From: an uncultured Prevotellaceae bacterium
GTDB lineage: Bacteria > Bacteroidota > Bacteroidia > Bacteroidales > Bacteroidaceae
Direction of reading: 5' to 3'
DNA length: 64,000 bases
Assembly: GCA_900316475.1 (NCBI GenBank)
Contig: ONDA01000023.1
Coordinates: 15,016 to 79,015, forward strand
This document shows positions 720-27,159 of this stretch, piece by piece. The position numbers and the translations under genes are program-made. Within the stretch, counting starts at the first letter, position 1. Each line of letters starts with the position of its first letter. The notes beneath the pieces are model-generated. The model was not told the origin of the DNA. It ran no database searches and saw nothing but the letters and a program-made list of their open reading frames with translations.

Positions 720-2189
720 TCAGCGACGGAGGAAGACATCGACCTTCCTGGCAGTCTCGATGCCGCTGGCCATGGCGCGCACGACGAGCGAGGCGCCGTT
801 CTGGGCGTCGCCGCAGACGAAGACGCTCTCGGGGTAGGCGGGGTGCTCGGGCTTGAGGAAGCCCATGGCCAGGAGGCACAGCTCGGCCTTGATGACGAAG
901 GGGTCGCCCTTGGGGACCATGACGGGGCGGGCGGGTTTCCCCGCTGGAGAAGCAGCGGGCACGGGGGTGGGTTTTCCCGCTGGAGAAGCAGCGGGCACGG
1001 GGGCCGGCTGCCACTCGACTTCCTGGACGCGGACGCCGGTCAGGTGGCCGTTCTCGCCAAGGAATTCGAGCGTATTGATGTTCCAGCGGCGGGTGCAGCC
1101 CTCCTCGTGGCTTGATGTGGTTTTGAGTGTGCGCGGGTAGTTTGGCCACGGGTTCTGCGGGTCGTCAGGACCCTCGACGGGGCGGGGCATGATTTCAATC
1201 TGGGTGACGGAGCAGGCACCCTGGCGATGAGCCGTGCCGATGCAGTCGGAGCCAGTGTCGCCGCCGCCAATGACGAGGACGTCCTTGCCCCGGGCGGTGA
1301 TGCGGTCGGCCTTCGGGAACTCCATGCCGGCGAGGACGCGGTTCTGCTGGGCGAGGAGTTCGAGTGCGAAGTGGACGCCTTTCAGGTCACGCCCAGGTGC
1401 TTTCAAGTCGCGGGCGGTGGGGGTGCCGGTGGCGAGGACGATAGCCCCCCACCCAGCCTCCCCCGAGGGGGAGGAGTAATTACATAGTTCGTTGAGAGCT
1501 GCCAGTAGAGTATCTACGCCCTCCCCTCGGGGAGGGATGGGGAGGGGGCTATTGTAGCGGAACTCAATGCCCTCCTGCTCCATCAGACTGATGCGGCGGT
1601 CGATGATGGCTTTGTTGAGCTTGAAGTTGGGGATGCCGTAGCGGAGGAGGCCGCCGGCGGCCTCGTTCTGCTCGAAGACGGTGACGGTATAGCCCATCTG
1701 GTTGAGGGCATCGGCAGCGGCAAGGCCGGCGGGACCGGCACCGATGACGGCAACCTTCTTGCCATTCCTGACTGGCACCCGTGGTTGGATATACCCCTCG
1801 CGGAAGGCGGCCTCGATGATGGCGCACTCGTCTTCGCGGTTGGTGGTCGGCTCGTGGTTGAAGCGGTTCAGCACGCAAGCTTTCTCGCACAGCGCGGGAC
1901 AGATGCGACCGGTGAACTCAGGGAAGGGATTAGTCGAGGCAAGCAGGCGGAAGGCCAGTTCCCAGTCGCCGCGATAGAGCGCGTCGTTCCACTCGGGCGC
2001 CTTGTTGCCCAGCGGACAGGCCCAGTGGCAGAAGGGTACGCCGCAGTCCATGCAGCGGCTTGCCTGCAGCTTGCGTTCGCGCGTGCTGAGCGTCTGCTCC
2101 ACCTCGCCGAAATCGTGGATGCGGTCGTGGACGGGGCGGTAGCCGGCCTCCTGACGGCCGATTTCTAAAAATGCTTTCGGGTTTCCCAT
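720..2189 (-). CDS. gltD: Glutamate synthase small subunit
   Basis: ASRCMDCGVPFCHWACP Fe-S motif, GAGPAG and IGGGDTG nucleotide-binding motifs; downstream of gltB. Confidence 0.97.
   Translation of the reverse strand: MGNPKAFLEIGRQEAGYRPVHDRIHDFGEVEQTLSTRERKLQASRCMDCGVPFCHWACPLGNKAPEWNDALYRGDWELAFRLLASTNPFPEFTGRICPALCEKACVLNRFNHEPTTNREDECAIIEAAFREGYIQPRVPVRNGKKVAVIGAGPAGLAAADALNQMGYTVTVFEQNEAAGGLLRYGIPNFKLNKAIIDRRISLMEQEGIEFRYNSPLPIPPRGEGVDTLLAALNELCNYSSPSGEAGWGAIVLATGTPTARDLKAPGRDLKGVHFALELLAQQNRVLAGMEFPKADRITARGKDVLVIGGGDTGSDCIGTAHRQGACSVTQIEIMPRPVEGPDDPQNPWPNYPRTLKTTSSHEEGCTRRWNINTLEFLGENGHLTGVRVQEVEWQPAPVPAASPAGKPTPVPAASPAGKPARPVMVPKGDPFVIKAELCLLAMGFLKPEHPAYPESVFVCGDAQNGASLVVRAMASGIETARKVDVFLRR
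933..1003. repeat. 36-bp tandem duplication of a CCCGCTG-n6-CAGCGGG hairpin, translated in frame in gltD (PVPAASPAGKP x2)
   Basis: Copies start at 933 and 969; peptide repeat visible in the ORF translation. Confidence 0.9.
1443..1550. repeat. Inverted pair of C/G-rich palindromic repeats in frame in gltD (1443-1476, 1518-1550)
   Basis: agcccccc..cctcccccgagggggagg and gccctcccctcggggaggg..gggggct; peptides SPLPIPPRGEG and SSPSGEAGWGA. Confidence 0.85.
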
Positions 2190-2270
2190 ATTTCTATTCT
2201 GTTTTTAATTTCTATTGTTGTTTAATCGCTTGTTTCTGCTCTTTCGGAGCGTTTCGCTTATGCTGCCACG

Positions 2271-5200
2271 TCAATAGTCGCGCTGGATATCCGCAATCTT
2301 CTCATGCAGCCTCGCCATTTTCTCCTCTTCGAGCACGCGCTTGTACTCGATGGGGATGACCTGGATGAAGTCCTCGATGTAGCGGTGCCAGTCGTCGAGC
2401 ATCCGTCCGGCCAGTGCGCTGCCCGTGTGCAGGTAATGCTGGCGGATGAGTTCGAGCAGTTCCTTGCGTGAAACACTATCCTCGACCAACGAAAGCTCCA
2501 CCATGTCCATATTGCAGAAATAGTCGAACGTGTGGTCGGGGTCATAGACATAAGCCACGCCGCCCGACATGCCTGCCGCGAAGTTGCGGCCGGTCTTGCC
2601 CAACACTACCACGCGACCGCCTGTCATGTATTCGCAGCAGTGGTCGCCCGCGCCCTCGATGACGGCGATGGCCCCGCTGTTGCGCACGCCGAAGCGCTCA
2701 CCGACGATGCCGTTGACGTACAGCTCGCCCGAGGTGGCGCCGTAGAGTCCGGTGTTGCCCGCTATGATATTCTCTTCGGCCTTGAATTCTTCACTGCGAC
2801 GGGCTGGCGGCAGGATGCTGATGCGTCCGCCGGAGAGTCCCTTGCCGAAGTAGTCGTTGGTCTCGCCCTCCAGCCGCAGGTCCAAGCCCTTCACAGCAAA
2901 GGCACCGAACGACTGACCGGCAGAACCTTTGAATTTGATTCTGATGGTGCCGTCGGGCAGTCCAGCCTCGCCATATTTCTTGGCAATGATACCCGAGAGC
3001 ATCGTGCCCACAGCACGGTCGGTATTCTTGATGGCATAGTCGAGCGTCACCTCTTCCTGGCTTTCGATGGCTTTTGCTGCCGCTTTGACGATTTCCTCGT
3101 CCTTTACGCCCGTCACCTTCGTATAGGCCCCACGGTCCCAGTAAAGCGCCTTATCTGTGTCGGGCTTATGGAGCAAGCGACCGAAGTCTATGGAGCGCCA
3201 TTTCTCCACCGCTGTTCCGTTTGTTGCGACGTTGTCGCAACTCTTCACCTCAATCAGTTCCGTATGACCGATAATCTCCTTCAGACTGTGTACGCCAATC
3301 TCGGCCAGATACTCGCGCACCTGCTGCGCAAGGAAGGTAAAGTAGTTCACTACATACTCGGCACGCCCCTCGAAATGCTTACGCAGCTCCGGGTTCTGCG
3401 TCGCCACACCCATCGGACAGGTATTCGTATTACACTTGCGCATCATCACGCAGCCCAGCACGATGAGCGGCAGCGTGCCAAACGAGAACTCGTCGGCGCC
3501 CAGCATTGCCATGATGATAACGTCCTTCGCCGTCTTCAGCTGTCCGTCGGTCTGCAGGCGCACCTGGTTCCGAAGACCATTGCGGACCAGCGTCTGCTGC
3601 GTCTCGGCCAGGCCAATCTCCGGCGAGATGCCCGCAAAACGCATCGACGACGCAGGCGATGCGCCCGTACCGCCCTCGGCACCACTGATGACGATGAGGT
3701 CAGCTTTCGCTTTCGCCACACCTGCGGCAATGGTTCCCACACCACTCTCAGCCACGAGTTTCACGCTCACAGCTGCTGTGGGGTTGATATTCTTCAGGTC
3801 GAAGATGAGCTGTGCCAGGTCCTCGATCGAATAGATGTCGTGATGAGGCGGCGGCGATATGAGTGAGATGCCGGGGATGGCATTTCGCGTCTTGGCGATG
3901 ATGTCGTTCACCTTGAAGCCGGGCAGCTGTCCGCCCTCGCCGGGCTTCGCTCCCTGTGCCACCTTAATCTGTATCTCCTCAGCATTCACCAGATACTCCG
4001 CCGTCACGCCGAATCGTCCGCTGGCAATCTGCTTCGTCTTGCTCGACAGCGACACGCCGTCCACCTCCGTGTGGTAGCGGGCATTGTCCTCGCCGCCTTC
4101 ACCGGTATTCGAGCGCGTGCCCAGCTTGTTCATCGCCAAAGCCAGTGCCTCGTGGGCCTCGATGCTCAGTGCGCCGAACGACATGGCGCCGGTCACGAAG
4201 TGCTTCACGATGCTCTCCACGGGTTCGACATCCTCGACAGACCTTTCCCCTTGCCCCTCCCTGTGAGGGAGGGGAGTAGATACCTTCTTAAAGGTGAGGA
4301 AGTCGCGCAGGAAGATAGGCGATTCCTTCTCGTCGACAAGCTTTGACCATTCCTTAAACTTCTCGTAATCGCCAGTACGGCAGGCTAACTGCAGCTTCGC
4401 AATCGTCTCCGGGTTCCACGCGTGCTTGATGCCGTCCCTGCGCCACGAGAACTGCCCGTGATTAGCAAGGTAACCACTCCCCTCCCTCACAGGGAGGGGT
4501 TGGGGGAGAGTCTGCAGGCGAATGGCATCTCTTGCAATCTCCTTCAGTCCGATGCCTCCGATGGTGCTCACCTCTGTGCCGAAGTAACGTCTCAGCAAGT
4601 CCTCGCTAAGCCCGATACTCTCGAAAATCTTCGCACCGCGATAGCTTCGGATGGTCGAGATGCCCATCTTCGACATGATCTTCTTCAGACCTTTATCCAC
4701 CGCCTTGATGTAGTTCCGTTCCGCCGTCGCATATTCCTCCTGAATCCTTCCGCGTTTCACCAAATCATCGAGTATGGCGAAGGTCATATATGGACACAGC
4801 GCCGAGGCTCCGTAGCCCAGCAGCAGCGCCGCATGCATCACCTCGCGAATCTCGCCGCTCTCCACAATGAGCGCCGTCTGCACACGCTTGCCCACGCTGA
4901 TGAGATAGTGATGAACGGCCGAGACAGCCAACAGCGACGGGATATTGAACCAGCAAGCCCCCCCTACGGCCCCCGAGGGGGCTTCTATAGTTTTGTCTGT
5001 GAGGATAATGTAGTTCACACCTTCGTCCACGCTGGCCTCTGCATCTTTGCAAAGCTTATCAAGTGCTGCACGCAAAGCTTCTTCGGCTTTGTCTAATGTA
5101 GCCCCCTCGGGGGCAGAAGGGGGGGCTACGACCATTGACAGTTTCTTGGTGTTGAAGCCCTTGTAGCGGATGTTACAAAGTATGTCCAGCTGTGTGTTCG

Positions 5201-7022
5201 TCAGCACCGGCTGCGGCAGGCGCACCATCTTGCAGTTAGAGGCATCCGGCGTCAGGATGTTCGTCCCCACCGCCCCGATGTACTCCGTCAGGCTCATGAC
5301 CAGCTCCTCGCGAATAGGGTCAATCGCTGGGTTCGTCACCTGCGCAAACTGCTGGCGGAAATAGTTGAACAGCACCTGCGGACGGTCGCTGACGACGGCA
5401 AGCGGTGTGTCGTTACCCATGGCCGCCACCGGCTCCTGCCCCGTCGTGGCCATCGGCACAATCGTCTTGTCAATATCCTCCTGTCCGAAGCCGAAGGTAA
5501 CCAGTTTACGCTGGAGGTCGCTCACAGCGTTCTCTACCTTGCGACCACTTTTCAGCTTCTCCAGCTGTACACGGTTCTCGCTGAGCCACTCACGATACGG
5601 ATGCGCCTTGGCCAGCTTCTCCTTAATTTCGCCGTCGTAGTATATTTTGCCTTCCTGCGTGTCGATGAGCAGAATCTTGCCTGGCTGCAAGCGTCCCTTC
5701 GAGACCACGTCGCCCGGCTCGAAGTCCATCACGCCGACCTCCGATGCCACGACCATCATGCCCTGCTTCGTAATCGTATAGCGCGAGGGGCGCAGACCGT
5801 TCCTGTCGAGCATACCGCCCGCATACCGTCCGTCGCTGAACAGCAGCGCCGCCGGTCCGTCCCATGGTTCCATCAGGATAGAGTGGTACTCATAGAACGC
5901 CTTCAAATCCTCCGAGATGGGGTGGGGCCCTCCGCCAGACACTCGGTAGTCTGGCGGCAATCCCTTGTCGTTGAACGACTCCGGCACCAGTATCGCCATC
6001 GCCTGCGGCAGCGACATGCCGCTCATCATCAGGAACTCAAACACGTTATCCAGGCTTGCACTATCGCTCATCCCCTCCTGCACAATCGGCGAAATCTCTC
6101 TGATGTCGCCCAATGCCTCGCTCGAAAGCACACTCTCGCGCGCCTTCATCCATCCGCGATTGCCGCGAATGGTGTTAATCTCGCCATTATGAGCTAACAA
6201 GCGGAAGGGCTGGGCCAGCGACCACGTGGGGAATGTGTTTGTGCTGAATCGTGAGTGGACCAGCGCCAGTCCGCTTGTCAGGTAGGGATTCGACAAATCC
6301 GGGAAATACCGGCGCAGCTGTCCGCTGGTCAGCATTCCCTTGTAGATGATATTCTTCGTGGAAAGCGAGCAGATGTAGAAAGCCTCAACCCCCAGCAGAC
6401 TCTCCCCCGGCCCCTCCCTGTGAGGGAGGGGAGCAGATACCATTTCCGCTATCCTCTTCTCAATCCTTTTCCTTATTATATATAAAGTGCGCTCAAATAC
6501 CGTCTCTTCTTCGCCAGGAGTGTAATCACTCCCCTCCCTCACAGGGAGGGGTCGGGGGTGGGTCTGCTGGTGGGTCTGCTGAGTCACAAATATCTGCTTA
6601 ATCTCTGGCTCTACCCTCCTTGCCGCCTCGCCCAGCACCTCCGGGCATGTCGGCACCGTGCGCAGATGCATCAGCTGCAGGCCCTCGCGCTCAATCTCCT
6701 CAATCATCACCGACAGGATTTCCTGCTGCGCCTTTTCCTCTTTCGGCAGGAACACCAGGCCCGTGCCGTACTTTCCCTTCTCGGGCACGGGGATGCCCTG
6801 CAACAGAATAAACTCATGGGGAATCTGTAGCATGATGCCTGCGCCGTCGCCCGTCTTGTCGCGGGTCTCGGCTCCTCGGTGCTCCATGTTCTCCAGCACC
6901 TTCAGCGCGTTGTCCACCAGTTCATGACTCTTGCCGCCGTGAATATTCACCACCATGCCTACGCCGCAGGCGTCGCGTTCATATTGTGACTGATAAAGTC
7001 CTTTTGTCTTACTATTTGTCAT
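2271..7022 (-). CDS. gltB: Glutamate synthase large subunit (start reassigned to ATG 7022)
   Basis: ERDACGVG N-terminal Ntn Cys, GAMSFG, IKVAQGAKPGEGGQLPG, CNTNTCPMG; -7 box at 7064-7071 argues against the upstream in-frame start. Confidence 0.98.
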   Translation of the reverse strand: MTNSKTKGLYQSQYERDACGVGMVVNIHGGKSHELVDNALKVLENMEHRGAETRDKTGDGAGIMLQIPHEFILLQGIPVPEKGKYGTGLVFLPKEEKAQQEILSVMIEEIEREGLQLMHLRTVPTCPEVLGEAARRVEPEIKQIFVTQQTHQQTHPRPLPVREGSDYTPGEEETVFERTLYIIRKRIEKRIAEMVSAPLPHREGPGESLLGVEAFYICSLSTKNIIYKGMLTSGQLRRYFPDLSNPYLTSGLALVHSRFSTNTFPTWSLAQPFRLLAHNGEINTIRGNRGWMKARESVLSSEALGDIREISPIVQEGMSDSASLDNVFEFLMMSGMSLPQAMAILVPESFNDKGLPPDYRVSGGGPHPISEDLKAFYEYHSILMEPWDGPAALLFSDGRYAGGMLDRNGLRPSRYTITKQGMMVVASEVGVMDFEPGDVVSKGRLQPGKILLIDTQEGKIYYDGEIKEKLAKAHPYREWLSENRVQLEKLKSGRKVENAVSDLQRKLVTFGFGQEDIDKTIVPMATTGQEPVAAMGNDTPLAVVSDRPQVLFNYFRQQFAQVTNPAIDPIREELVMSLTEYIGAVGTNILTPDASNCKMVRLPQPVLTNTQLDILCNIRYKGFNTKKLSMVVAPPSAPEGATLDKAEEALRAALDKLCKDAEASVDEGVNYIILTDKTIEAPSGAVGGACWFNIPSLLAVSAVHHYLISVGKRVQTALIVESGEIREVMHAALLLGYGASALCPYMTFAILDDLVKRGRIQEEYATAERNYIKAVDKGLKKIMSKMGISTIRSYRGAKIFESIGLSEDLLRRYFGTEVSTIGGIGLKEIARDAIRLQTLPQPLPVREGSGYLANHGQFSWRRDGIKHAWNPETIAKLQLACRTGDYEKFKEWSKLVDEKESPIFLRDFLTFKKVSTPLPHREGQGERSVEDVEPVESIVKHFVTGAMSFGALSIEAHEALALAMNKLGTRSNTGEGGEDNARYHTEVDGVSLSSKTKQIASGRFGVTAEYLVNAEEIQIKVAQGAKPGEGGQLPGFKVNDIIAKTRNAIPGISLISPPPHHDIYSIEDLAQLIFDLKNINPTAAVSVKLVAESGVGTIAAGVAKAKADLIVISGAEGGTGASPASSMRFAGISPEIGLAETQQTLVRNGLRNQVRLQTDGQLKTAKDVIIMAMLGADEFSFGTLPLIVLGCVMMRKCNTNTCPMGVATQNPELRKHFEGRAEYVVNYFTFLAQQVREYLAEIGVHSLKEIIGHTELIEVKSCDNVATNGTAVEKWRSIDFGRLLHKPDTDKALYWDRGAYTKVTGVKDEEIVKAAAKAIESQEEVTLDYAIKNTDRAVGTMLSGIIAKKYGEAGLPDGTIRIKFKGSAGQSFGAFAVKGLDLRLEGETNDYFGKGLSGGRISILPPARRSEEFKAEENIIAGNTGLYGATSGELYVNGIVGERFGVRNSGAIAVIEGAGDHCCEYMTGGRVVVLGKTGRNFAAGMSGGVAYVYDPDHTFDYFCNMDMVELSLVEDSVSRKELLELIRQHYLHTGSALAGRMLDDWHRYIEDFIQVIPIEYKRVLEEEKMARLHEKIADIQRDY
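4241..4514. repeat. Inverted pair of palindromic repeats in frame in gltB (4241-4284, 4471-4514)
   Basis: CCCCTCCC-TGTGA/TCACA-GGGAGGGG stems; peptides VSTPLPHREGQGER and QTLPQPLPVREGSGY. Confidence 0.9.
4955..5128. repeat. Inverted pair of palindromic repeats in frame in gltB (4955-4984, 5099-5128)
   Basis: agccccccctacggcccccgagggggct and agccccctcgggggcagaagggggggct; peptides APSGAVGGA and APPSAPEGAT. Confidence 0.85.
5932..5957. repeat. Perfect 9-bp-stem hairpin in frame in gltB
   Basis: ccgccagac-actcggta-gtctggcgg; peptide GLPPDYRVSGGGPH inside FNDK...PISEDLKAF. Confidence 0.7.
6397..6566. repeat. Inverted pair of palindromic repeats in frame in gltB (6397-6441, 6521-6566)
   Basis: Same CCCCTCCC..GGGAGGGG stem; peptides VSAPLPHREGPGESL and QTHPRPLPVREGSDYT. 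Confidence 0.9.
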
Positions 7023-7063
7023 ATTATCCTTACTTTTTCTTACGTTTTGTCTAATTTTCGATG

Positions 7064-7071
7064 CAAAGGTA
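7064..7071 (-). promoter_or_regulatory. Bacteroidetes sigma-A -7 box for gltB-gltD
   Basis: TACCTTTG on the minus strand matches TAnnTTTG, about 40 nt upstream of the ATG. Confidence 0.75.
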
Positions 7072-7133
7072 ATACTATATGTCTGATTTGCCAAAGCTCT
7101 GATTTCCTTTTTCACCTTCATTTGGCACCCAAC

Positions 7134-7220
7134 TTACATTTTGTAAAGTCCAAGCCCGCGACACGCCCATTTTGCGGTGTCATACGGTGTCTGCGACACG
7201 CCGTAGCTTACACTTTGTCA
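7134..7220. promoter_or_regulatory. Paired candidate operator boxes upstream of gltB (7134-7146, 7208-7220)
   Basis: TTACATTTTGTAA and TTACACTTTGTCA, 74 bp apart; the same layout recurs at three other promoters. Confidence 0.7.
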
Positions 7221-7359
7221 TTTTCAGGCGAATAGTAACGCGACGGAACGACAATTGTTTTTCCAAACTCCATTTTCTTTTATCATAAGCGGAACATTAT
7301 TTGGCGTTTCCTGATTTTTTTTGTTACTTTGCACGCCATAAAGGTGACAACACAAAAAA

Positions 7360-8262: not shown

Positions 8263-8266
8263 ACAC

Positions 8267-9684: not shown

Positions 9685-9771
9685 TGACTATTTGTTACAG
9701 TCTGACCGCTTTTTGAGCCAAAAAGTAAGCAAAGTGTAAAGAAACGAATTTGTTTTCTTTACACTTTGTTA
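9685..9771. promoter_or_regulatory. Paired candidate operator boxes upstream of glnK-amtB (9685-9697, 9759-9771)
   Basis: TGACTATTTGTTA and TTACACTTTGTTA, 74 bp apart, ending 63 bp before the -7 box. Confidence 0.65.
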
Positions 9772-9833
9772 TTTATTTTAATATTTTGAAAACATATCGA
9801 CATTGGATGCTTGCAGTTTCTGACAAAATGTCG

Positions 9834-10240: not shown

Positions 10241-10246
10241 GGGGTG

Positions 10247-10356
10247 CTCCCCTGCCCCCTCCAAGGAGGGGAGAGTCAAATAACACAAACACAAAAATCA
10301 CAACCCCATACCTCCGTTCGGGTTCCCCCTCCTCGGGAGGGGGTAAGGGGAGGCTT
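10247..10356. repeat. Intergenic inverted pair of the same palindromic repeat family (10247-10277, 10321-10356)
   Basis: ctcccctgccccctccaaggagggg and ccccctcctcgggagggggtaaggggaggctt. Confidence 0.85.
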
Positions 10357-10362
10357 ATACTT

Positions 10363-12629: not shown

Positions 12630-14351
12630 ATGGAAACAAAGTACATCTTCGTCACGGGCGGCGTCGTTTCCTCGTTGGGAAAAGGCATCATCTCCGCCAG
12701 CATCGGCAAACTGCTGCAGGCACGTGGCTTCAAAATCACCATCAAGAAGTTCGACCCGTACATCAACATCGACCCGGGCACACTGAACCCCTACGAGCAC
12801 GGCGAATGCTACGTGACGGAGGACAGTTTTGAAACCGACCTCGACTTAGGGCACTACGAGCGCTTTACGGGTATACGTACCACACGCCACAACAGCATCA
12901 CCACAGGCCGCATCTATAAGGCAGTCATCGACCGCGAGCGCCACGGCGACTATCTGGGCAAGACCATCCAGGTGGTGCCGCACATCACGGACGAGATAAA
13001 AAAGAGGATATTGGACACCCCGGGGGCAGTAGGAGGAGCTTTGGGGACTTCATCTTTCGTCATTTGCGAAATCGGCGGCACCATCGGCGACATCGAGAGT
13101 GCGCCGTTCATGGAGGCTATCCGCCAGCTGCGCTGGGAACTGGGGCGCAATGCCGTGTGTGTACACCTAACCTACGTGCCCTATCTGAAAGCCGCCGACG
13201 AGTTAAAGACAAAGCCCACGCAACATTCGGTCAAGGAATTGCAGAGCATGGGCATCCAGCCTGACATCCTCGTACTACGCACGGAACGTCATCTGGACGA
13301 AAGCCTGCGCAGGAAAGTGGCGTCGTTCTGCAATGTCGACCTGGATTGTGTCGTACAGAGCGAGGACTTGCCGAGTATCTATGAGGTGCCGGTGAGTATG
13401 CACCAGCAGGGGCTTGACACGGCCATATTAAGAAAGGCGGGAGCCTCCCCAAGCCCCTCCAAAGGAGGGGATGTTGAGACACCTGATTTCGCGGCTTGGA
13501 CTGCCTGGCTTGCCTTCCTCGACAAGCAGCGACACGCTACCCGTGAGTTGCACATCGGACTGGTGGGTAAATACGACCTGCAGGATGCCTACAAGAGCAT
13601 CCGCGAGAGCCTGAGTCTGGCTGGCGTCTATAACGACGTGAAGACGAAGATTCATTTCGTCAACAGCGAGGCGTTGACGGCGGAAAACGTCGCTACACAA
13701 TTGGCGGGCATGGCGGGCATCGTCATCTGTCCTGGTTTCGGACAGCGGGGCATCGAGGGGAAAATCATCGCCGCCGAATACACACGCACACACGACATCC
13801 CCACCTTCGGCATCTGCTTAGGCATGCAGATGATGGTCATTGAGTTTGCACGGAACGTGTTAGGCTATCCGGATGCGACGAGCAGCGAGATGGTGACCTT
13901 CCCCAAAGCCTCCCCAAGCCCCTCCGAAGGAGGGGGTGTGGCTCCCCACTGTGTGATAGACATGATGGAAGAACAGAAGAGTATTACGCAGATGGGTGGC
14001 ACGATGCGGTTGGGGGCATACGACTGCCAATTAGTGGAAGGCAGCAAAGCGTATGAAGCATACCTGCAGTCGGAGCAATCTACCCCCCTCGCTCACAGAG
14101 AGGAGCCGGGGGAGAGTCTCTTTGTCAAGGAACGCCATCGCCATCGCTATGAGTTCAACAATCAATATAAGGAGGAATACGAGCAGGCCGGCATGAAGTG
14201 CGTAGGCATCAACCCGACCGCCAACCTCGTCGAGATTGTCGAGATACCCGACAAGCGTTGGTACATCGGCACACAGTTCCATCCTGAGTATTCGTCAACG
14301 GTGCTGCACCCGCACCCACTGTTTATGTCGTTCATAAAGGCCTGCATCTGA
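12630..14351 (+). CDS. pyrG: CTP synthase
   Basis: FVTGGVVSSLGKG, KFDPYINIDPGTLNPYEHGE, CLGMQ, RHRHRYE, QFHPE. Confidence 0.98.
   Translation: METKYIFVTGGVVSSLGKGIISASIGKLLQARGFKITIKKFDPYINIDPGTLNPYEHGECYVTEDSFETDLDLGHYERFTGIRTTRHNSITTGRIYKAVIDRERHGDYLGKTIQVVPHITDEIKKRILDTPGAVGGALGTSSFVICEIGGTIGDIESAPFMEAIRQLRWELGRNAVCVHLTYVPYLKAADELKTKPTQHSVKELQSMGIQPDILVLRTERHLDESLRRKVASFCNVDLDCVVQSEDLPSIYEVPVSMHQQGLDTAILRKAGASPSPSKGGDVETPDFAAWTAWLAFLDKQRHATRELHIGLVGKYDLQDAYKSIRESLSLAGVYNDVKTKIHFVNSEALTAENVATQLAGMAGIVICPGFGQRGIEGKIIAAEYTRTHDIPTFGICLGMQMMVIEFARNVLGYPDATSSEMVTFPKASPSPSEGGGVAPHCVIDMMEEQKSITQMGGTMRLGAYDCQLVEGSKAYEAYLQSEQSTPLAHREEPGESLFVKERHRHRYEFNNQYKEEYEQAGMKCVGINPTANLVEIVEIPDKRWYIGTQFHPEYSSTVLHPHPLFMSFIKACI
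13017..14119. repeat. Four palindromic repeat copies in frame in pyrG (13017-13040, 13441-13473, 13906-13936, 14077-14119)
   Basis: Peptides TPGAVGGA, ASPSPSKGGDV, ASPSPSEGGGV, STPLAHREEPGESL match the gltB and intergenic copies. Confidence 0.8.
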
Positions 14352-14352
14352 C

Positions 14353-16146
14353 ATGGAACAACTCAAGCATGAGTGTGGCGTGGCGATGATTCGCCTGCTG
14401 AAACCGCTGGACTACTACGGACAGAAGTACGGCACCAACCGCTACGGGCTGAACAAACTCTACCTGATGATGGAGAAACAACACAACCGCGGTCAGGAGG
14501 GAGCAGGCATCGCCTCGGTGAGCCTGGACAAAGAGCCTGGCCGGGAGTATATGTTCCGAGAGAAGGCCGAAGGTAAGGATGCCATCACCGAAATCTTCAG
14601 AAGGGTGGCCTCAACAATACCCTCATCATGTCATCAGGCACCCTCGCCTTCGGAGGGACTTGGCGAGGCGTGGAGCACTTGCCAACTCCTGATGGGGCAC
14701 CTGCGCTACTCAACGACGGGCAAGAGCGGACTGCAATACGTACATCCTTTCCTGCGCCGCAACAACTGGCGGGCGAAGAACCTCTGTCTGTGCGGCAACT
14801 TCAACATGACCAACATCGACGAGGTCTTCCGCTTCCTGACAGCGCAGGGACAGTCGCCGCGTATCTATGGCGACTCGTACATCACGCTGGAACTGATGGG
14901 GCACCGCCTGGACCGCGAGGTCGAAAGGCTCTACAACGAGGCGATGGGCAAAGGACTGGAGGGACTCGACATCACGCACTATATAGACGAGCATGTGGAG
15001 ATGGCCAATGTGCTACGCACCACGATGCAGCACTACGACGGCGGTTACGTCATGTGTGGACTGACGGGCTCGGGCGAGATGTTCTCTGTACGCGACCCCT
15101 GGGGTATCCGTCCGGCATTCTACTATCGCGACGACGAGATAATAGCCGTCGCCAGCGAGCGCCCTGTGCTGCAGACCACGTTCGACATCCAGGCTGAGGA
15201 TGTGCATGAGCTGATGCCTGGTCAGGCACTCATCGTTCATCAGAACGGCACGAGCCAGCTGGAACAGATAATGCCTGCACAGCGGTTCAGTGCCTGTTCC
15301 TTCGAGCGCATCTACTTCAGTCGCGGCTCCGACCGTGACATCTATCAGGAGCGCAAACGGCTGGGCGAACAACTGACGCCAGCCATCCTCAAGGCTATTG
15401 ACAACGATGTTGCCAACACCGTGTTTTCATATATCCCCAACACGGCCGAGGTGGCCTACTATGGCATGACCGACGGTTTCCGACGGCAGGGCTACAGCGT
15501 GCGCACGGAGAAGGTGGTGTGGAAAGACATCAAACTGCGCACCTTCATTGCCGACAACTCAGAGCGCAACGACCTGGCGGCTCATGTCTACGACATCAGC
15601 TACGGTTCGCTGCGACCCTACGAGGACAACCTCGTCATCATCGACGACTCCATCGTGCGCGGAACGACACTCAAGGAGAGCATCTTCAAGATTCTGGACC
15701 GGCTGCACCCCAAGAAGATTGTCATGGTCAGCTCGTCGCCCCAGATTCGCTACCCCGACTACTACGGCATCGACATGGCGCGCCTGGAGGAGTTCTGCGC
15801 CTTCCGCGCCACGATGGCACTGATTGAGGAGCGTGGTATGTGGCAACTGGTCAACGACACCTATCTGGCCTGCAAACATAACCTTCAAACAGAGAATCAT
15901 GTCCGTGCGCTCTACGAGCCTTTCACCGTCGAGGAAATCAACAGGAAGATTGTGGAGATGCTGCGCCCGAAGGGCATGAAGGCACCTGTCGAACTGGTGT
16001 TCCAGAGTATCGAGGGTCTCCACGAGGCGTGCCCTAACCACCCTGGCGACTGGTATTTTACCGGTCACTATCCTACGCCTGGCGGCACACGGCTCTGTAA
16101 CGCTGCCTTTGTGAACTACATTGACAACAAACAGAAGAAACGGTAA
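14353..16146 (+). CDS. purF: Amidophosphoribosyltransferase (class II glutamine amidotransferase plus PRTase)
   Basis: KHECG, QHNRGQEGAG, GHLRYST, VRDPWGIRP, IIDDSIVRGTT. Confidence 0.88.
   Translation: MEQLKHECGVAMIRLLKPLDYYGQKYGTNRYGLNKLYLMMEKQHNRGQEGAGIASVSLDKEPGREYMFREKAEGKDAITEIFRRVASTIPSSCHQAPSPSEGLGEAWSTCQLLMGHLRYSTTGKSGLQYVHPFLRRNNWRAKNLCLCGNFNMTNIDEVFRFLTAQGQSPRIYGDSYITLELMGHRLDREVERLYNEAMGKGLEGLDITHYIDEHVEMANVLRTTMQHYDGGYVMCGLTGSGEMFSVRDPWGIRPAFYYRDDEIIAVASERPVLQTTFDIQAEDVHELMPGQALIVHQNGTSQLEQIMPAQRFSACSFERIYFSRGSDRDIYQERKRLGEQLTPAILKAIDNDVANTVFSYIPNTAEVAYYGMTDGFRRQGYSVRTEKVVWKDIKLRTFIADNSERNDLAAHVYDISYGSLRPYEDNLVIIDDSIVRGTTLKESIFKILDRLHPKKIVMVSSSPQIRYPDYYGIDMARLEEFCAFRATMALIEERGMWQLVNDTYLACKHNLQTENHVRALYEPFTVEEINRKIVEMLRPKGMKAPVELVFQSIEGLHEACPNHPGDWYFTGHYPTPGGTRLCNAAFVNYIDNKQKKR
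14638..14669. repeat. Degenerate palindromic repeat copy in frame in purF
   Basis: ccctcgccttcggagggacttggcgaggc; peptide APSPSEGLGEA. Confidence 0.65.
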
Positions 16147-16152
16147 TAATCT

Positions 16153-17085
16153 TGAACTTTCCCACCCCTTTCCTTTTTAATCCCATTTCTTTTCAACCAC
16201 TAATTGCTAATTGAACGAATTATTACTAATTCAACTTTCTCAAGTTTTATAACGACCACGAATTTAACGAATTAAACGAATTTTCTATGCAGGATGTTAT
16301 GATGCATCTAAGATGCAACGAATTTCACGAATTGGCTAGCGCCGGCAAGAAATCGCTTGCGATTTCATTCGTGAAATTCGTTTAAAATAACAACGCGCAG
16401 CCAAATTCGTGAAATTCGTGAAATTCGTGGTAAAAAAAATACTTACGAAACTTGAATTACTAATAAGTTGCGAATTTTCGCCGCAAGTGCCGATAGCCTG
16501 CGCGTAGCAAATTAGTGAAATCTTTGTCGTCTGTCGGCTCAAAATCTTTTAAATCTTCAAATCTTTGTTCATTACAAAAAGAATGGCCGTCATTTGTTTC
16601 GGAAAACAATTAGAAAAAATTAGAATAATCTGTTCCAACAATTAGAAATAAAGCTGTCTCGACAAATTAGAAATAATAAGCCCTGTCAGGGCATTTGTTG
16701 GGAAACGAATTGCCGTAATAATCATAATTTTTGCCGTAATTTTCATAATAATAATTACGGAGCACTGCGCGTAGCAAAATTAGTGAAATTAGTGCAATTA
16801 GTGGTTTATTATAATGTCATCTTTGTCGTCTGTCGGCTCAAAATCTTTTAAATCTTCAAATCTTTGTTCATTATTAAATTATTCAAGTTTCGTAAGTATT
16901 TTTTTACCACGAATTTCACGAATTTCACGAATTTGGCTGCGCGTTGTTAATTTAAACGAATTTCACGAATGAAATCGGAAAATTCGTTTAATTCGTTAAA
17001 TTCGTAGTCGTTATAAAACTTGAGAAAGTTGAATTAAATTAGTGAAATTAGTGGTTCTTAAAAGGTTTTAGGGGTGGGGAACTTG
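16153..17085. repeat. AT-rich non-coding fold-back region with long inverted arms and internal direct repeats
   Basis: 16227-16285 vs 16978-17036 inverted (1 mismatch in 59); 16360-16457 vs 16881-16977 inverted (1 mismatch, 1 indel); 16521-16574 = 16820-16873 direct; 9-bp AAATTCGTG repeats. Confidence 0.9.
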
Positions 17086-17120
17086 AGTAGTAATCTTTGC
17101 AGAATAATCTAAAATACCAA

Positions 17121-18035
17121 TCATAGTCCGTTTATCGTCTCAACTGTCAGCCCTGTGTATTTGGCTATCAGTTCTGCGGGCATGCCGTCAGCCTTCATAC
17201 GGCGGGCTGACTCTAAGGCCTTTTCATGCTCGCCCTCGGCACGACCCTTCTTCAGGCCCTCGGCACGACCCTCGGCGCGTCCCTTTGCCAAACCTTTCTC
17301 CATACCCTTCGCTGCGGCAGTGCGGAAAGCACCGTCGAGGTCGTAATAGGCCTTCTCGCTCTCGAAATACTTGGCGTAGTCCTCCTTCGACAGGTTGGCC
17401 GTCTCCGCCACGTCGAAGAACTTCTTGAAGATGCGCTCCTGCAGGGCGGCAGGGCGCTCCAGCAGGCGGGGCAGGTTCTTCAGCGCGTAGAGCCACTTGT
17501 CGAGCAGCGACTCCAGCTCGGCCTCCGTCTTGCGGAACTTGGGCATCTCGAGATAGATGTAAGTCAGGTTGTCGTAGAAGACCTCTTTTTTGTTGATATC
17601 CATCAGCTTCACCACGTGGTGGAAGTACTCCTCGTCGTCCTTGTCCTCGTCGAACACGAAGTCGAGGATGCCGATGGTGTAGACGGCCTTCAGGCCGAAG
17701 CGCCAGCGACCCCGCTCGCCCTGTGAGCGGATGGGGAACGAAGAGTAGTAGACCGAGCGGTCCTTGAAGTACTGCTGGTCGGCCTTCTGCATCTCGATGA
17801 TGATTTTCTCGCCGTGCTCGTTCTCGGCATACACGTCGAAGACGGCGCGGCGGTCGTCCTTCGTGTCGCCGAGCTGCTCGGACGGTATCAGCGTGAGCGA
17901 CTTGATGACCTCCTTACCACGCAGCAGCTCGTTGACGAGCGCCAGCGTGAACTCCTTGTTAGGCTCGGTGCCGAAGAGGTACTTGAAGCCGTAGTCGGTA
18001 AAGGGATTGATGTATCTGCCTGCTATCTCTTCCAT
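17121..18035 (-). CDS. Rpn family recombination-promoting nuclease / PD-(D/E)XK putative transposase
   Basis: YINPFTDYGFKYLFG, FDVYAENEHGEKIIIEMQ, YIYLEMPKF, C-terminal GRAEG repeats; start reassigned to 18035. Confidence 0.9.
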   Translation of the reverse strand: MEEIAGRYINPFTDYGFKYLFGTEPNKEFTLALVNELLRGKEVIKSLTLIPSEQLGDTKDDRRAVFDVYAENEHGEKIIIEMQKADQQYFKDRSVYYSSFPIRSQGERGRWRFGLKAVYTIGILDFVFDEDKDDEEYFHHVVKLMDINKKEVFYDNLTYIYLEMPKFRKTEAELESLLDKWLYALKNLPRLLERPAALQERIFKKFFDVAETANLSKEDYAKYFESEKAYYDLDGAFRTAAAKGMEKGLAKGRAEGRAEGLKKGRAEGEHEKALESARRMKADGMPAELIAKYTGLTVETINGL

Positions 18036-18190
18036 AAGTGATGTACTGAATTTCTGCTGCAAAAATAGCATTTTTCCCTGACACTGCCAAGGATTTTGCA
18101 GAATAAAATCTACTTGGCATAGCGTATTCTCCATGAATTGCCCAGGCTTTGTCACTATAAACCGAAGCGGGAATAGCAGAAAAAAAAGTA

Positions 18191-18591
18191 GGTGACACCT
18201 CTTACACCTGGCACTTAACTACTTGAAAATCAAGGGCCGTTCCGAGCAGCTTAGTCGCACCTGTGGTCACACCTATAGTCGCACCTGTGGTCGCTCCAAG
18301 GCGCTCGGCGACGCAAGGAGACGCATTCTTTGCAAGCAAAGCGTCGCAAGCGCCGAGCGGCCAAGAAAAAGGCAAGAATAGTGGCAGACCGTGAAACATT
18401 TACGAGAGGCCGTGAGATTTTTCTGAGAGGCCGTGAAATTTTTGCGAACGGCCGTGAAATTTTCGGCTTTGCCGTGAAACATTTTGGGAGTGGTTGGTGC
18501 GCCACTTGGTGTGGGTATTGGTGTGGGTATTGGTGTGGGCAAGTTCCTCGCTAACCTGCTGATAATCAGGCTTGGTGTAAGAGGTGTCACC
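18191..18591. mobile_element. MITE-like element with perfect 18-bp terminal inverted repeats
   Basis: GGTGACACCTCTTACACC (18191-18208) and its exact reverse complement (18574-18591); internal 12-bp and 21-bp tandem arrays; no credible ORF. Confidence 0.6.
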
Positions 18592-18680
18592 AAAATGCAG
18601 TCTTGCCTGTATACGCGCGCGAGAGAAGAGGCATTTTAGGGTGTGCGTAAGCCAAAGAGGTAGCATAGACGTTAGCCAAA

Positions 18681-18767
18681 TGACGCTTTGTAACAGAACT
18701 GACAGTTTTCCCGTCAAAGAGAAAGCATAATGACACTTATCGGCCATCATAATATTACAAAATGTCA
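18681..18767. promoter_or_regulatory. Paired candidate operator boxes upstream of asnB (18681-18693, 18755-18767)
   Basis: TGACGCTTTGTAA and TTACAAAATGTCA, 74 bp apart, ending 63 bp before the -7 box TACCTTTG (18830-18837). Confidence 0.7.
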
Positions 18768-18889
18768 GCAAACTGAAGTTTTAACAAACAAAAGAGTCAA
18801 GTTCCGAGGTCTCTCTCTCTTGTTTTGCTTACCTTTGCTGCCTGTTTATTGCAAGTACTAAGTAAATACTGATAATTGTTGATATAACT

Positions 18890-20628
18890 ATGTGTGGAAT
18901 AGTAGCAATATTAAACGTCAAGGAGCAGACACAGGCTCTGCGTGATAAAGCATTGAAGATGAGTCAGAAGATTCGCCATCGCGGACCCGACTGGAGCGGC
19001 ATCTACTGTGGCGGCAGTGCTATCCTTGCCCACGAACGGCTGAGCATCGTCGACCCGGAAAGCGGAGGGCAACCTTTGTTTTCGCCAGACAAGAAACAGG
19101 TCTTGGCTGTCAACGGCGAGATATACAACCACCAGGAGATTCGCCGCCGCTATGCCGGCCAGTACGAATTCCAGACTGGCAGCGACTGCGAGGTCATTCT
19201 GGCGTTGTACAGAAGCCTCACCCCCAGCCTCTCTCCGAAAGGCGAGGGGAGTGATTACACTCATGAGCAGATTTGTGAGATGCTGGAACAGTTGAGTGGA
19301 ATTTTTGCGTTTGTCTTGTACGACGAAGAGACTGACGTGTTCCTGATTGCCCGCGACCCCATCGGTGTGATTCCGCTTTATATCGGTTACGATGCCGATG
19401 GCAAGGTGTATGTGGCCTCCGAACTGAAAGCGCTCGAAGGACAGTGCGAGCACTACGAGCCGTTCCTGCCCGGTCATTACTATTGGAGTGCCGACCCAGG
19501 CATGAAGCGCTACTACAAGCGCGACTGGTTCAACTATGATGCCGTGAAGGATAATCCTGCTTCCGTAGAGGCTGTTCATGATGCCTTGGAGGATGCCGTC
19601 AGGCGCCAGCTGATGTCCGACGTGCCTTATGGCGTACTGCTCTCTGGCGGACTCGACTCCAGCGTCATCTCCGCCATCGCCGAGAAATACAGTGAGATGC
19701 GTATCGAGGACAACTCGAAAACCAAAGCCTACTGGCCCCGCCTGCACTCGTTTGCCGTGGGACTGAAAGGTGCACCCGACCTGGCCAAGGCAAAACTGGT
19801 GGCCGACCATATCGGCACCGTGCATCACGAAATCAACTACACCATCCAGGAAGGCCTCGATGCCATCCGCGACGTCATCTACTTCATCGAGACCTACGAC
19901 GTGACAACCGTCCGAGCCTCAACGCCGATGTATCTGCTGGCACGTGTCATCAAGTCGATGGGCATCAAGATGGTGCTCTCGGGTGAGGGTGCCGACGAGA
20001 TCTTCGGTGGCTATCTCTATTTCCACAAGGCGCCGACGGCCAAGGACTTCCACGAAGAGACCGTCCGCAAGCTCTCCAAGCTCTATATGTACGACTGTCT
20101 GCGCGCCAACAAGAGTCTGTCGGCCTGGGGCGTCGAGGGTCGTGTGCCGTTCCTCGACAAAGAGTTCCTCGACGTTGCCATGCGGACGAACCCCAAGGCC
20201 AAGATGTGTGGCCCCAGCTCCTCTCCAAAGGACGAGGGGAGTTTCATCATTGAGAAGAAGATTGTGCGCGAGGCCTTTGCCGACCTGCTACCCGACGAGG
20301 TGGCCTGGCGACAGAAAGAGCAGTTCAGCGACGGTGTGGGCTACTCATGGATTGACACGCTGAAACAGATGACCGCAGAAGCCGTCAGCGACGAGCAGAT
20401 GGCGCACGCCGCAGAGCGATTCCCCATCAACACGCCGAAGAACAAGGAGGAATACTACTACCGCAGCATCTTTGCCGAGCACTTCCCCAGCGACAGCGCG
20501 GCCAAGAGCGTGCCCTCAGAGGCCAGCGTGGCTTGCAGCACGGCCATCGCCCTGGAATGGGATGCCGCCTTCAAGGGCGTGAACGACCCCAGCGGCCGCG
20601 CCGTCAAGGGCGTTCACGAGCAGGCTTA

Positions 20629-20632
<4 letters not shown>
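18890..20632 (+). CDS. asnB: Asparagine synthetase B (glutamine-hydrolysing)
   Basis: MCGI, RHRGPDW, HERLSIVD, NGEIYN, LLSGGLDSS, SGEGADEIFGGY. Confidence 0.98.
19213..20245. repeat. Two palindromic repeat copies in frame in asnB (19213-19260, 20211-20245)
   Basis: Peptides SLTPSLSPKGEGSDYT and GPSSSPKDEGSF; the first shares GAGGGGAGTGATTACAC with the gltB 6521 copy. Confidence 0.8.
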
Positions 20633-24313
<3,681 letters not shown>

Positions 24314-24440
24314 ACGACTACGAAATTTGACGACTACGAAATTTGACGACTACGAATTACACGAATTATACGAATTATACGAATAGATTCCGAGGGGAAA
24401 AGACTGGATGGAAGTTCGTAAAATTCGTGTAATTCGTAGT
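24314..24440. repeat. Intergenic tandem and inverted ACGAATT-type repeat
   Basis: 16-bp tandem acgactacgaaatttg; 26-bp inverted arms 24349-24374 and 24415-24440 (1 mismatch). Confidence 0.8.
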
Positions 24441-24452
24441 AGAAGAAAGAAG

Positions 24453-24875
24453 ATGAGCAGTGAGGATTGTGAAGCGCTGTTGGTAGCGCACGACATTAAG
24501 CCGACGGCAAACCGCATTGTCGTGGCTAAGACATTGGCCGCCGCTGAGCGGCCAATGTCGTTATCGGAGCTGGAATACAAAATCCTGTCTATCGACAAGT
24601 CGGGCGTCTTCCGCGCACTGACGCTGTTCCGCGAGCACCATCTGGTACACGTCATCGAGGACGGCGGCGACGGCGTGCGCTACGAACTGTGCCACAGCCA
24701 CGACAGCCACGCCGAAGACGACGACCAGCACGTACACTTCTACTGCGAGCGCTGCCACCGCACATTCTGCCTGCACGACACCCCTATCCCAGCCGTACAA
24801 CTGCCTCATGGCTACCACCTGGCAAGCATCAACTACATGGCCAAGGGTCTATGCCCAGAATGCGCTTCCCACTAA
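24453..24875 (+). CDS. Fur-family metal-responsive repressor
   Basis: IKPTANR, SGVFRALTLF, HVHFYCERC, GLCPEC; start reassigned to MSSEDC. Confidence 0.9.
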   Translation: MSSEDCEALLVAHDIKPTANRIVVAKTLAAAERPMSLSELEYKILSIDKSGVFRALTLFREHHLVHVIEDGGDGVRYELCHSHDSHAEDDDQHVHFYCERCHRTFCLHDTPIPAVQLPHGYHLASINYMAKGLCPECASH

Positions 24876-25053
24876 TTTCCCCGTTACACCAACGGGCGCG
24901 GATATAGGGTCACAGTATAACAACTATATACCGTGCAATACTTGGGTATTTGCCTTTTTTATAGGCTTATCTGCGTTAATCTTCCAAAATTGCTTTGCCA
25001 CGTCAGCATTATTCCGTAACTTTGCAGGCTGAAAGAAAAAAACAGGATTTTTT

Positions 25054-27159
25054 ATGGAACAGAAACAGTATAAACGGACGACCGTGACGTCGGCCCTGCC
25101 CTATGCCAACGGCGGGGTACATATCGGTCACCTGGCTGGCGTCTACGTGCCGGCAGATATCTATGTGCGCTATCTTCGTCTGAAGAAGCGCGAGGTTCTT
25201 TTCATCGGCGGCTCCGACGAGCATGGCGTACCCATCACCGTGCGTGCCCGCAAGGAGGGCATCACGCCGCAGGACGTTGTGGACCGCTACCACAAGATGA
25301 TTAAGGACTCGTTCGAGGAGTTCGGCATCTCGTTCGACATTTACAGCCGCACCACCTCGGAGACCCACCATAAGTTTGCTGCCGACTGGTTCCGCAAGCT
25401 CTATGACGAGGGCAAGCTCGTGGAAGAGACCACCGAGCAGCTCTACGACGAGGAAGCGAAGCAGTTTCTGGCCGACCGCTACGTCGTGGGCGAGTGCCCC
25501 CACTGCCACAGCGAAGGAGCCTACGGCGACCAGTGCGAGAAATGCGGCCGCGACCTCTCGCCCACGGAGCTGATAAACCCCCGGTCGACCATCAGCGGTT
25601 CGACACCCGTACTGAAGAAGACCAAGAACTGGTACTTGCCGCTGAACGAGTATCAGGACTGGTTGAAGCAGTGGATACTGGAGGAGCACAAGGAGTGGCG
25701 TCCGAATGTCTACGGCCAGTGCAAGTCGTGGCTCGACATGGACCTGCAGCCCCGCGCCATGACTCGCGACCTGGACTGGGGTATCCCCGTGCCCGTGGAA
25801 GGAGCCGACGGCAAGGTGCTCTACGTATGGTTCGACGCCCCCATCGGCTATGTGTCGAACACGGTAGAACTGTGTGAGAAGGAGCCAGAGAAATGGGGTG
25901 ACTGGCGCAAGTGGTGGCAGGACGAGGACACCCGTCTGGTACACTTCATCGGCAAGGACAACATCGTGTTCCACTGCATCATCTTCCCCACGATGATGAA
26001 GGCCTGGAACGACGCAAACAAGCTCTCCTCCCTCGGAGGGACCGGGAGAGGCTTCATCATGCCCGACAACGTGCCCGCCAACGAGTTCCTGAACCTGGAG
26101 AACGACAAGATTTCGACCTCAAGGAACTGGGCCGTCTGGCTGCACGAATACCTGGAGGACATGCCCGGCAAGCAGGACGTACTGCGCTACGTGCTGACCG
26201 CCAATGCCCCGGAAACGAAGGACAACAACTTCACGTGGAAGGATTTCCAAGACCGCAACAACAACGAGCTGGTGGCCGTCTATGGCAATTTTGTCAACCG
26301 TGCCCTGCAGCTGACGAAGAAATACTGGAACGGCGTCGTTCCCGCCTGCGGCGAACTGACCGACGTTGACCGTCAAGCCCTGGAGGAGTTCAAGGACGTG
26401 AAGGCCAAGGTGGAAAACCTGCTGGAGCAGTTCAAGTTCCGCGACGCACAGTTTGAGGCCATGAACCTGGCCCGCATCGGCAACAAGTACATCACCGACT
26501 GCGAGCCGTGGAAAGTGTGGAAGACCGACCCGAAGCGCTGCAAAACCATCCTGAACATCTGTCTGCAACTGACGGCCAACCTCGCTATTGCCTTCGAGCC
26601 GTTCCTGCCGTTCTCGAGTAAAAAACTCCGCGAGATGCTTAACATCGACAGCTTTGAGTGGGAGCAGCTGGGCAGCACCGACCTGTTGCAGGCTGGCCAC
26701 CAGTTAGGCGAGCCGCAGCTGCTGTTCGAGAAGATTGAGGACGACGTCATACAGAAGCAGCTCGACAAGCTGGAAGCCACCAAGAAAGCCAATGAGGCTG
26801 CCGCCTTCAAGCCTGCTGACATCAAGGAAACGGTTAGCTTCGAGGACTTTGAGAAGCTCGACATCCGTGTGGGCTTGGTGAAGGACTGCCAAAAGGTGAA
26901 GAAGTCGAAGAAGCTCCTGCAGTTCACCATCGATGACGGTTCAGGCACCGACCGCACCATCTGCTCGGGCATCGCCCAGTTCTACGACGACCCGTCGGCG
27001 CTCGTGGGCAAGCGCATCCTCTTCGTGGCCAACTTCGCGCCGCGCACGATGATGGGCATCGAGAGCCAGGGCATGATTCTCTCGGCCGTCGATGCCGACG
27101 AGAGCCTGAGCGTAGTCACCACGACGAAAGACGTCAAGCCCGGCTGTCAGGTGGGATGA
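25054..27159 (+). CDS. metG: Methionyl-tRNA synthetase with C-terminal tRNA-binding domain
   Basis: [38 protein letters not shown]. Confidence 0.98.
26020..26054. repeat. Palindromic repeat copy in frame in metG
   Basis: aagctctcctccctcggagggaccgggagaggctt; peptide [12 protein letters not shown]. Confidence 0.75.

Follow-up and report, generated by a model that had tools for sequence, protein, structure and literature searches.

Short repeats in tail-to-tail inverted pairs, many of them in frame within housekeeping genes of a rumen Prevotella

The subject here is a family of short repeats in a 64,000-nt stretch of DNA (henceforth the window), which comprises positions 15,016-79,015 of contig ONDA01000023.1 in the 3.29 Mb genome (83 contigs, 52.9% G+C) of an uncultured rumen Prevotella. 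By the relatives of its CTP synthase the genome falls among uncultured rumen MAGs (metagenome-assembled genomes) of Prevotella/Prevotellaceae. The units, about 45 nt long, lie both between genes and, in frame, within intact housekeeping genes, and where two are close together they form an inverted pair with the same ends always facing each other across DNA that is the host's own. They are probably non-coding selfish or neutral repeats, of the kind to which repetitive extragenic palindromic (REP) sequences and intrastrand-triplex motifs belong, occurring in tail-to-tail inverted pairs, with the intragenic copies being in-frame survivors in loops. The original prediction, made from the letters of the stretch alone, had listed 18 copies of a palindromic element, all of which were recovered at or near their expected places by repeat finding and alignment; what had escaped it was the obligate inverted pairing, the mirror-repeat (triplex-type) design and the spread across rumen Prevotella.

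The consensus from an alignment of copies is (C)AGACCCACCCCC-NN-CCCCTCCCT-GTG-AGGGAGGGG-AGTRRTTAC. A C-rich tract is followed by a 2-3-nt linker, a G/C hairpin of 9 bp and a tail, AGTRRTTAC, of 9-10 nt, with the 5' arm of the hairpin being the mirror image of the C-rich tract. In the A type the hairpin is CCCCTCCCT-(3-5 nt)-AGGGAGGGG and the mirror, 9 nt on each side, is ACCCACCCC-CGG-CCCCTCCCT; the B, C and D types have equivalent arms. On its G-rich strand (the 33 nt CCCCTCCCTCACAGGGAGGGGCCGGGGGTGGGT) the element reads CCCCTCCCT-N3-5-AGGGAGGGG-CCG-GGGGTGGGT, a geometry of 9/loop/9/3/9 (9/5/9/3/9) in which the third tract mirrors the purine arm, the A being faced by T or A. Mirror- or triad-compatible positions amount to 89%, a score above that of 200 out of 200 shuffles. 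Subfamily A is as the consensus, B is CCTCACCCCC / CCCCTCTCC, C is GCCTCCCCAAGCCCCTCCGAAGGAGGGGATGTT and D is AGCCCCCCC..GCCCCCGAGGGGGC, and from A to D the non-C interruption in the tract shifts in step with that of the arm. In many copies the outer end, that of the C tract, has tandem reiterations of 9-12 nt, (CAGACCCAC)n or (AGACCCTCC)n, that would read as QTHQQTH-type peptide; examples are at 6560-6579 of the window and, elsewhere in the genome, at C32:9784, C71:64022 and C81:16811 and 17049 (contig:position). No Rfam family covers the element.

The members of the family are strictly arranged. Neighbouring copies less than 400 nt apart were without exception (39 of 39) in the order plus, minus, that is with tails inward and C/G tracts outward, and the other three possible arrangements had no representative. 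Six further copies that at first sight are single have a degenerate partner, inverted and always on the tail side. The same order was met in eight of eight pairs at the pyrG and gltB loci of other MAGs and, among the matches of a covariance model in nine other genomes, in 12 of 12 close neighbours, so that it holds for 65 of 65 close pairs over more than ten genomes. The 25-300 nt between mates are resident host DNA, being conserved coding sequence in gltB and pyrG and, for about 18 of the 39 pairs, a stretch from the AT-rich leader through the start codon to about the tenth codon. Mates are of the same subfamily and often have rare loop or linker variants in common; their mean identity is 0.70 versus 0.66 for random mates (z=4.6), a value reached in none of 2000 permutations. 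Spacer G+C content is 43% versus 57%, and for the purely intragenic pairs 50% versus 57% (P=0.05). AT-rich spacers were considered as a targeting signal and set aside, the low G+C coming mostly from pairs around intergenic leaders and the intragenic pairs by themselves giving a marginal result. Transcripts of paired copies are predicted by an energy model to be able to fold into a stem of about 45 bp, with -112 kcal/mol for the first gltB pair and -139 kcal/mol for another.

The first 27 kb of the window encodes GltD, GltB, a P-II protein, an ammonium transporter, PyrG, a PurF-like amidotransferase, AsnB and MetG, each of which NCBIfam matches over its full length, and it is here that the 18 copies lie. 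The 16 that are intragenic stand in intact, full-length genes and correspond to extra segments relative to relatives or solved structures. Direct reading of the A-type consensus gives one stop-free frame of three in the sense direction and two of three in the antisense direction; the surviving intragenic copies use stop-free frames, with the predicted peptides being of the PLPVREGS type or of the STPLPHREG or SPPSQGG type. The earlier claim of in-frame insertion into housekeeping genes in either orientation, adding what are predicted to be Pro/Gly/Ser/Glu-rich loop peptides, is supported at the level of conceptual translation.

In gltD the left mate, at 1443-1483 (+), has the arm variant CCTCCCCC and the predicted peptide SSPSGEAGWG, and after a 26-nt spacer is followed by the right mate at 1510-1555 (-; SPLPIPPRGEG). 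The same gene has, at 940-995, an in-frame tandem duplication with a 36-nt unit that contains the hairpin CCCGCTGGAGAAGCAGCGGG and would give PVPAASPAGKP twice; the duplication is absent from the orthologue of the congener designated G005, and its unit is unique in the genome.

Three pairs are present in gltB. An A-type pair at 4243-4286 (+; peptide VSTPLPHREGQGERS) and 4470-4518 (-; QTLPQPLPVREGSGY) brackets about 180 nt of conserved coding sequence; a D-type pair (AGCCCCCCC..GCCCCCGAGGGGGC) is formed by copies at 4950-4990 (+; APSGAVGG) and 5093-5130 (-; VVAPPSAPEGATL); and a second A-type pair, at 6397-6443 (+) and 6522-6579 (-), brackets TPGEEETVFERTLYIIRKRIEKRIAEM, with the outer end of its right mate having a 12-nt tandem duplication (QQTHQQTH). 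GltB is long, 1616 aa versus 1496-1523 aa in five congeners. In a protein alignment each of the six copies is opposite a gap in all five, and the stretches between paired copies align as ordinary conserved sequence. A different palindrome (CCGCCAGAC..GTCTGGCGG; peptide GLPPDYRVSGGGP) forms a clean in-frame insertion of 39 nt at 5924-5962; it is absent in the five congeners and single-copy in the genome. Between glnK and amtB the left mate is at 10244-10278 (+) and the right mate at 10316-10352 (-), ending 11 nt ahead of the amtB start codon.

Four loops of PyrG are occupied. Loop 1 (13014-13052, -) has the remnant right half of a D-type pair (DTPGAVGGALGT); loop 2 (13441-13480, +), at the interdomain linker position, and loop 3 (13908-13945, +) have C-type copies (GASPSPSKGGDV and KASPSPSEGGGV); and loop 4 (14076-14124, -) has an A-type copy (STPLAHREEPGESL) at a place which is occupied in several other rumen Prevotella MAGs also. 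All four sites are gaps relative to G005. When the comparison is with two CTP synthases in PDB, three sites are gaps relative to both and the third site is a gap only relative to the E. coli enzyme. In another assembly a PyrG with 98% identity (P0005) retains in its loop 1 the whole D-type pair, of which the window has just the right half, and therefore copies decay by partial deletion. Across species the four loops are recurrent sites, with loops 3 and 4 having A/A pairs or B/B pairs in different lineages and C/A in the window's clade. Several other rumen MAGs (L016, L018, L019, L020, L051 and L062) have in loop 1 unrelated-looking inserts of 15-35 aa, such as EVRGERQEVRDYSQPQDYSLTSHLSPLPSNY, which suggests that further repeat families colonize the same pyrG loops.

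The purF-like gene has a degenerate C-type copy (APSPSEGLGEAW) at 14635-14675 (-). A B-type copy (CCTCACCCCC-AG-CCTCTCTCC..GGCGAGGGG-AGTGATTAC) is in asnB at 19214-19262 (+), as is a degenerate B-type copy (GPSSSPKDEGS) at 20205-20250 (+), and a degenerate C-like copy in metG at 26025-26060 (-) amounts to an insert of 13 aa which G005 lacks. G005 does have inserts in the same loops at the gltD, purF and asnB sites, of different or decayed sequence, that at the second asnB site being diverged. The alignments with orthologues that had been proposed as a check gave gaps at the GltB and PyrG copies and no counterpart of the MetG insert in G005. An AlphaFold2 model of PyrG (70-sequence alignment) had a mean predicted local distance difference test (pLDDT) score of 52, too poor for placing inserts; from the alignment gaps in variable loops it is plausible that the copies create surface loops.

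How far does the family extend in its genome? An iterated nhmmer model gave 105 matches at E<0.05 and 125 at E<1. A family-agnostic scan for the triplex motif (mirror C tract, 1-4-nt linker, hairpin of C-arm, loop and G-arm) gave 108 sites as against four in a control consisting of the reversed, non-complemented genome. Taken together these give a census of 131 copies at 87 loci, with most copies in inverted pairs; the palindromic repeat family is dispersed and exceeds chance by far. Of the census copies 93 (71%) are inside genes versus 81% gene coverage, the latter from crude gene calls (hexamer model), a slight depletion (P=0.003).

No bin of the genome is denser than the window's 26-kb region, where six loci (10 census copies) compare with an expectation of 0.69 loci (Poisson P=8e-5, or about 0.01 when corrected for the 126 bins). 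In the other 38 kb of the window (27-64 kb) there is no copy, an absence without weight as only about 1.5 were expected. Genes carrying copies elsewhere encode DnaG (two pairs), UvrA, BamA, RimO, FeoB, Lgt, DapF, Era, PriA, a ParE/GyrB-like protein, Mfd and TopB. These are functionally unrelated, and therefore the element is not tied to nitrogen assimilation, with function and location being inseparable in the cluster itself. Of the strong enrichment in nitrogen-assimilation transcripts that had been proposed, what survives is a local cluster, real but modest, that could reflect local spread, high expression or the tolerance of large enzymes.

Beyond this genome, in which the strict A-type core occurs 38 times, there are three occurrences in one congener and none in 23 others. 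With a covariance model, the family as a whole is present in 65 of 301 genomes of the bacterial family, representing 13 of its 35 genera, with at least 20 matches in many of them. A phage vehicle was considered and rejected: the A-type core is in only six IMG/VR contigs, one copy in each, with no sign of phage enrichment.

Of known systems, one resembles the element in its internal design. TMECO (BoxC/PIT) of E. coli, with the consensus CCCTCNCCC-N3-6-GGGNGAGGG-N3-GGGNGAGGG, folds in vitro into an intrastrand triplex of the purine-motif type (Holder et al. 2015, PMC4666352; Hoyne et al. 2000, cited there). Read on the G-rich strand, the two have one layout, in which a C-rich stem of 9 nt, a loop of 3-6 nt and a complementary G-rich stem of 9 nt are followed, after another loop of 3 nt, by a further G-rich tract, the mirror of the first (G.GC, with A/T where it is interrupted). 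They are also alike in being G/C-rich, present in tens to hundreds of copies with patchy distribution among strains or species, and sometimes arranged in inverted pairs, and neither has a known associated mobile-element gene. Yet the Prevotella element, with CCCCTCCCT / AGGGAGGGG in place of CCCTCNCCC / GGGNGAGGG, departs from the published consensus and it alone has the conserved tail AGTRRTTAC. Whereas TMECO is proteobacterial and 'always intergenic' (PMC4666352), the element has a host in the Bacteroidota and is 71% intragenic and in frame; and its tracts always face outward, unlike the G tracts of four of the five E. coli TMECO pairs (Table 1 of PMC4666352), which face inward. The Prevotella element is the same kind of motif as TMECO and not the same family, its putative triplex being read from the sequence.

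In its genic occupancy the element recalls a different system, as the original prediction had proposed. Rickettsia palindromic elements (RPEs), reportedly described by Ogata et al. in 2000, are said to be in-frame palindromic repeats in open reading frames (ORFs), and the classic RPE-1 is longer, about 100-150 bp. The likeness in behaviour is upheld, with the same repeat being intergenic and also in frame in intact, unrelated housekeeping ORFs, in either orientation, adding a peptide without destroying the gene and being absent from orthologues. The hosts differ, a free-living rumen anaerobe here versus obligate intracellular Rickettsia, and no sequence relationship between the two is known. 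We know of no triplex or mirror design in RPEs, nor of any report that they are obligatorily paired tail to tail.

Tail-to-tail dimers with variable spacers are a feature of REPs. REPINs, which are REP doublets, were reportedly introduced by Bertels and Rainey in 2011. With REPs the element has in common that it is a 20-40-nt hairpin repeat with a short tail, that it forms inverted dimers and that genes for replication and repair (those for UvrA, DnaG, PriA, Mfd and TopB) are among its carriers. It differs in having no GTAG or CGTC tag next to the stem, the tail instead being AGTRRTTAC, and no head-to-head dimers; a mirror tract is not a REP feature. From REPINs it differs in having no conserved spacer, its spacers being 25-300 nt of resident coding or leader DNA. 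Tail-to-tail REP dimers with spacers of 20-100 bp, including intragenic ones in uvrA and uvrB of other phyla, have been described (Di Nocera et al. 2013, PMC3733652), and these are the nearest precedent for the pair architecture. The same work has intragenic REP singles and dimers encoding 20-30 aa, especially in genes for DNA replication and repair, and equates RPE-4 and RPE-6 with CGTC REPs (PMC3733652). The element combines a triplex motif of the TMECO type, tail-to-tail dimers as in REPs and an in-frame occupancy like that of RPEs, and a literature search for in-frame palindromic elements in Prevotella or Bacteroidetes found no published description of it.

Could the pairs be doing something other than spreading? 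Inverted repeats around a segment bring to mind recombination sites, with a site-specific or homologous system inverting the bracketed DNA (intragenic or start-codon invertons) and so switching off or recoding the gene; the core site for a recombinase would be the hairpin core, two arms of 8-9 bp around an asymmetric centre of 3-5 nt. All 65 close pairs are inverted, as this would need, the roughly 18 of 39 that span a leader, start codon and first codons are where a switch might be put, and intragenic invertons are reported in Bacteroidales (PMC10028968). But inversion in silico, with approximate block boundaries, breaks the ORF in 14 of 21 cases, with the gltB, pyrG and most other intragenic segments gaining stops; the targets are essential housekeeping genes, no recombinase was linked to the pairs and, since either order of inverted repeats would serve inversion, the exclusive tails-inward order would be left unexplained. 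We think it improbable that the pairs are invertons. An equally improbable thought is that selection keeps the elements for a host function in RNA or DNA, either as 45-bp double-stranded RNA stems acting as signals for RNase III or stability, or as triplexes or G-quadruplexes at which replication or transcription would pause in glutamine-amidotransferase genes with high expression. The very stable long stems predicted for gltB mRNA, the density of the region, the filling of the same pyrG loops in many species and the conservation of the mirror-repeat design across subfamilies are what such a function would lead one to expect, yet even congeners differ in whether they have the elements, in close relatives the orthologues function without them, copies decay freely and TMECO showed neither promoter nor terminator activity in E. 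coli (PMC4666352).

The likeness to REPs raises the further thought that the elements are REPINs, mobilized in trans by a RAYT (REP-associated Y1 HUH transposase). Short palindromic repeats in inverted doublets would be in keeping with it, and so would the start of the tail as read on the opposite strand, a GTA(A/T) that recalls the GTAG tag, the precedents for tail-to-tail dimers with variable spacers and for intragenic dimers in DNA-repair genes (PMC3733652), and the existence of one Y1_Tnp gene in the genome. That gene, the sole RAYT-like one (C33:27991-28857, -; locus L006), is single-copy and encodes 289 aa with an HVHLLL motif and a C-terminal extension. It has no element match within about 10 kb, and its homologues, in 22 of the 301 genomes and concentrated in another genus (g42) of the same family, coincide with the element in only two of its 65 carriers. 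A linked HUH transposase had been suggested as something to look for, and this single Y1 gene, being neither adjacent nor co-distributed, is rejected as the mobilizer. As the GTA(W) is moreover 5 nt away from the stem instead of adjoining it, and as a doublet with host DNA for its spacer would be unable to move as one unit, we regard REPINs moved by a RAYT as very improbable here. A miniature inverted-repeat transposable element (MITE) is also rejected: the DNA between inverted copies is the host's own (conserved core segments of GltB and PyrG), and no target duplication was seen, though the empty sites are imprecise.

The interpretation that we prefer, selfish or neutral repeats in tail-to-tail pairs, would have units laid down, or maintained, as inverted pairs around 25-300 nt of resident DNA. 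An intragenic copy would survive only if the frame were kept, the stop-containing frames were avoided and the hit were in a tolerant variable loop, and the survivors would be read through as loop peptides rich in Pro, Leu, Gly, Glu and Ser. Later on they would decay by point mutation or partial deletion, or be overwritten by other subfamilies. As to how a pair originates, the same short template may be copied in a single event at two nicks on opposite strands, with synthesis starting at what become the outer ends, or a resident copy may template an inverted second copy nearby. Several points count against this interpretation. The strict orientation is without a demonstrated mechanism; no transposase or other mobilizing enzyme for the element was identified; that the same loops are occupied again and again in many species could be due to vertical inheritance with gene conversion and not to repeated transposition; and no precise empty site with a target duplication was recovered in DNA or codon alignments to the closest congener, because that congener is 79% identical in nucleotides and often has remnants in the same loops.

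It is doubtful, though less so than the alternatives above, that the exclusive tails-inward pairing and the private variants common to mates betray an insertion mode so far undescribed. A template of about 45 nt would be copied onto both strands at nicks 25-300 nt apart, or a resident copy would template its inverted neighbour, leaving host DNA bracketed by a triplex- or G-quadruplex-prone element; the 9-12-nt tandem repeats at outer ends might then reflect reiterated initiation on the template.

Some other features of the window are recorded here for their own sake. Inside the densest cluster is a gene for an Rpn-family recombination-promoting nuclease or putative transposase, at 17121-18155 (-; TIGR01784, E=3e-33), and the spacer between it and asnB has two 12-nt tandem arrays (TAGTCGCACCTG-like) at 18252-18297 and 18494-18539, the second being related to the first and not its exact complement. 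Between purF and the next gene is an AT-rich block (16147-17120) with nested long inverted repeats of 82 nt at 98% (16357-16438 / 16899-16980) and 59 nt at 98% (16227-16285 / 16978-17036) and also with 9-nt tandem units, (AATTCGTGA)n; a smaller relative is upstream of metG (24346-24446). The block beside purF may be a MITE, an invertible segment or a mosaic of leader repeats. Rfam has a single match in the window, an L13-Bacteroidia ribosomal protein leader (RF03127, 68.6 bits) at 39614-39688 (+).

Prevotella is a dominant genus of the rumen and gut. For such elements, which even in E. coli have no known means of mobilization, the strict pairing rule is a concrete handle on how they are generated. 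If about a fifth of Prevotella species carry tens to hundreds of translated inserts in core enzymes such as glutamate synthase, CTP synthase, primase, UvrA and BamA, then selfish DNA shapes the lengths and loop sequences of proteins, and systematic 'insertions' would be met in alignments of orthologues, in quality checks of MAGs and in protein-family profiles. Triplex-type repeats, so far intergenic curiosities of enterobacteria and cyanobacteria, would then have a further natural test bed, much larger than the first.

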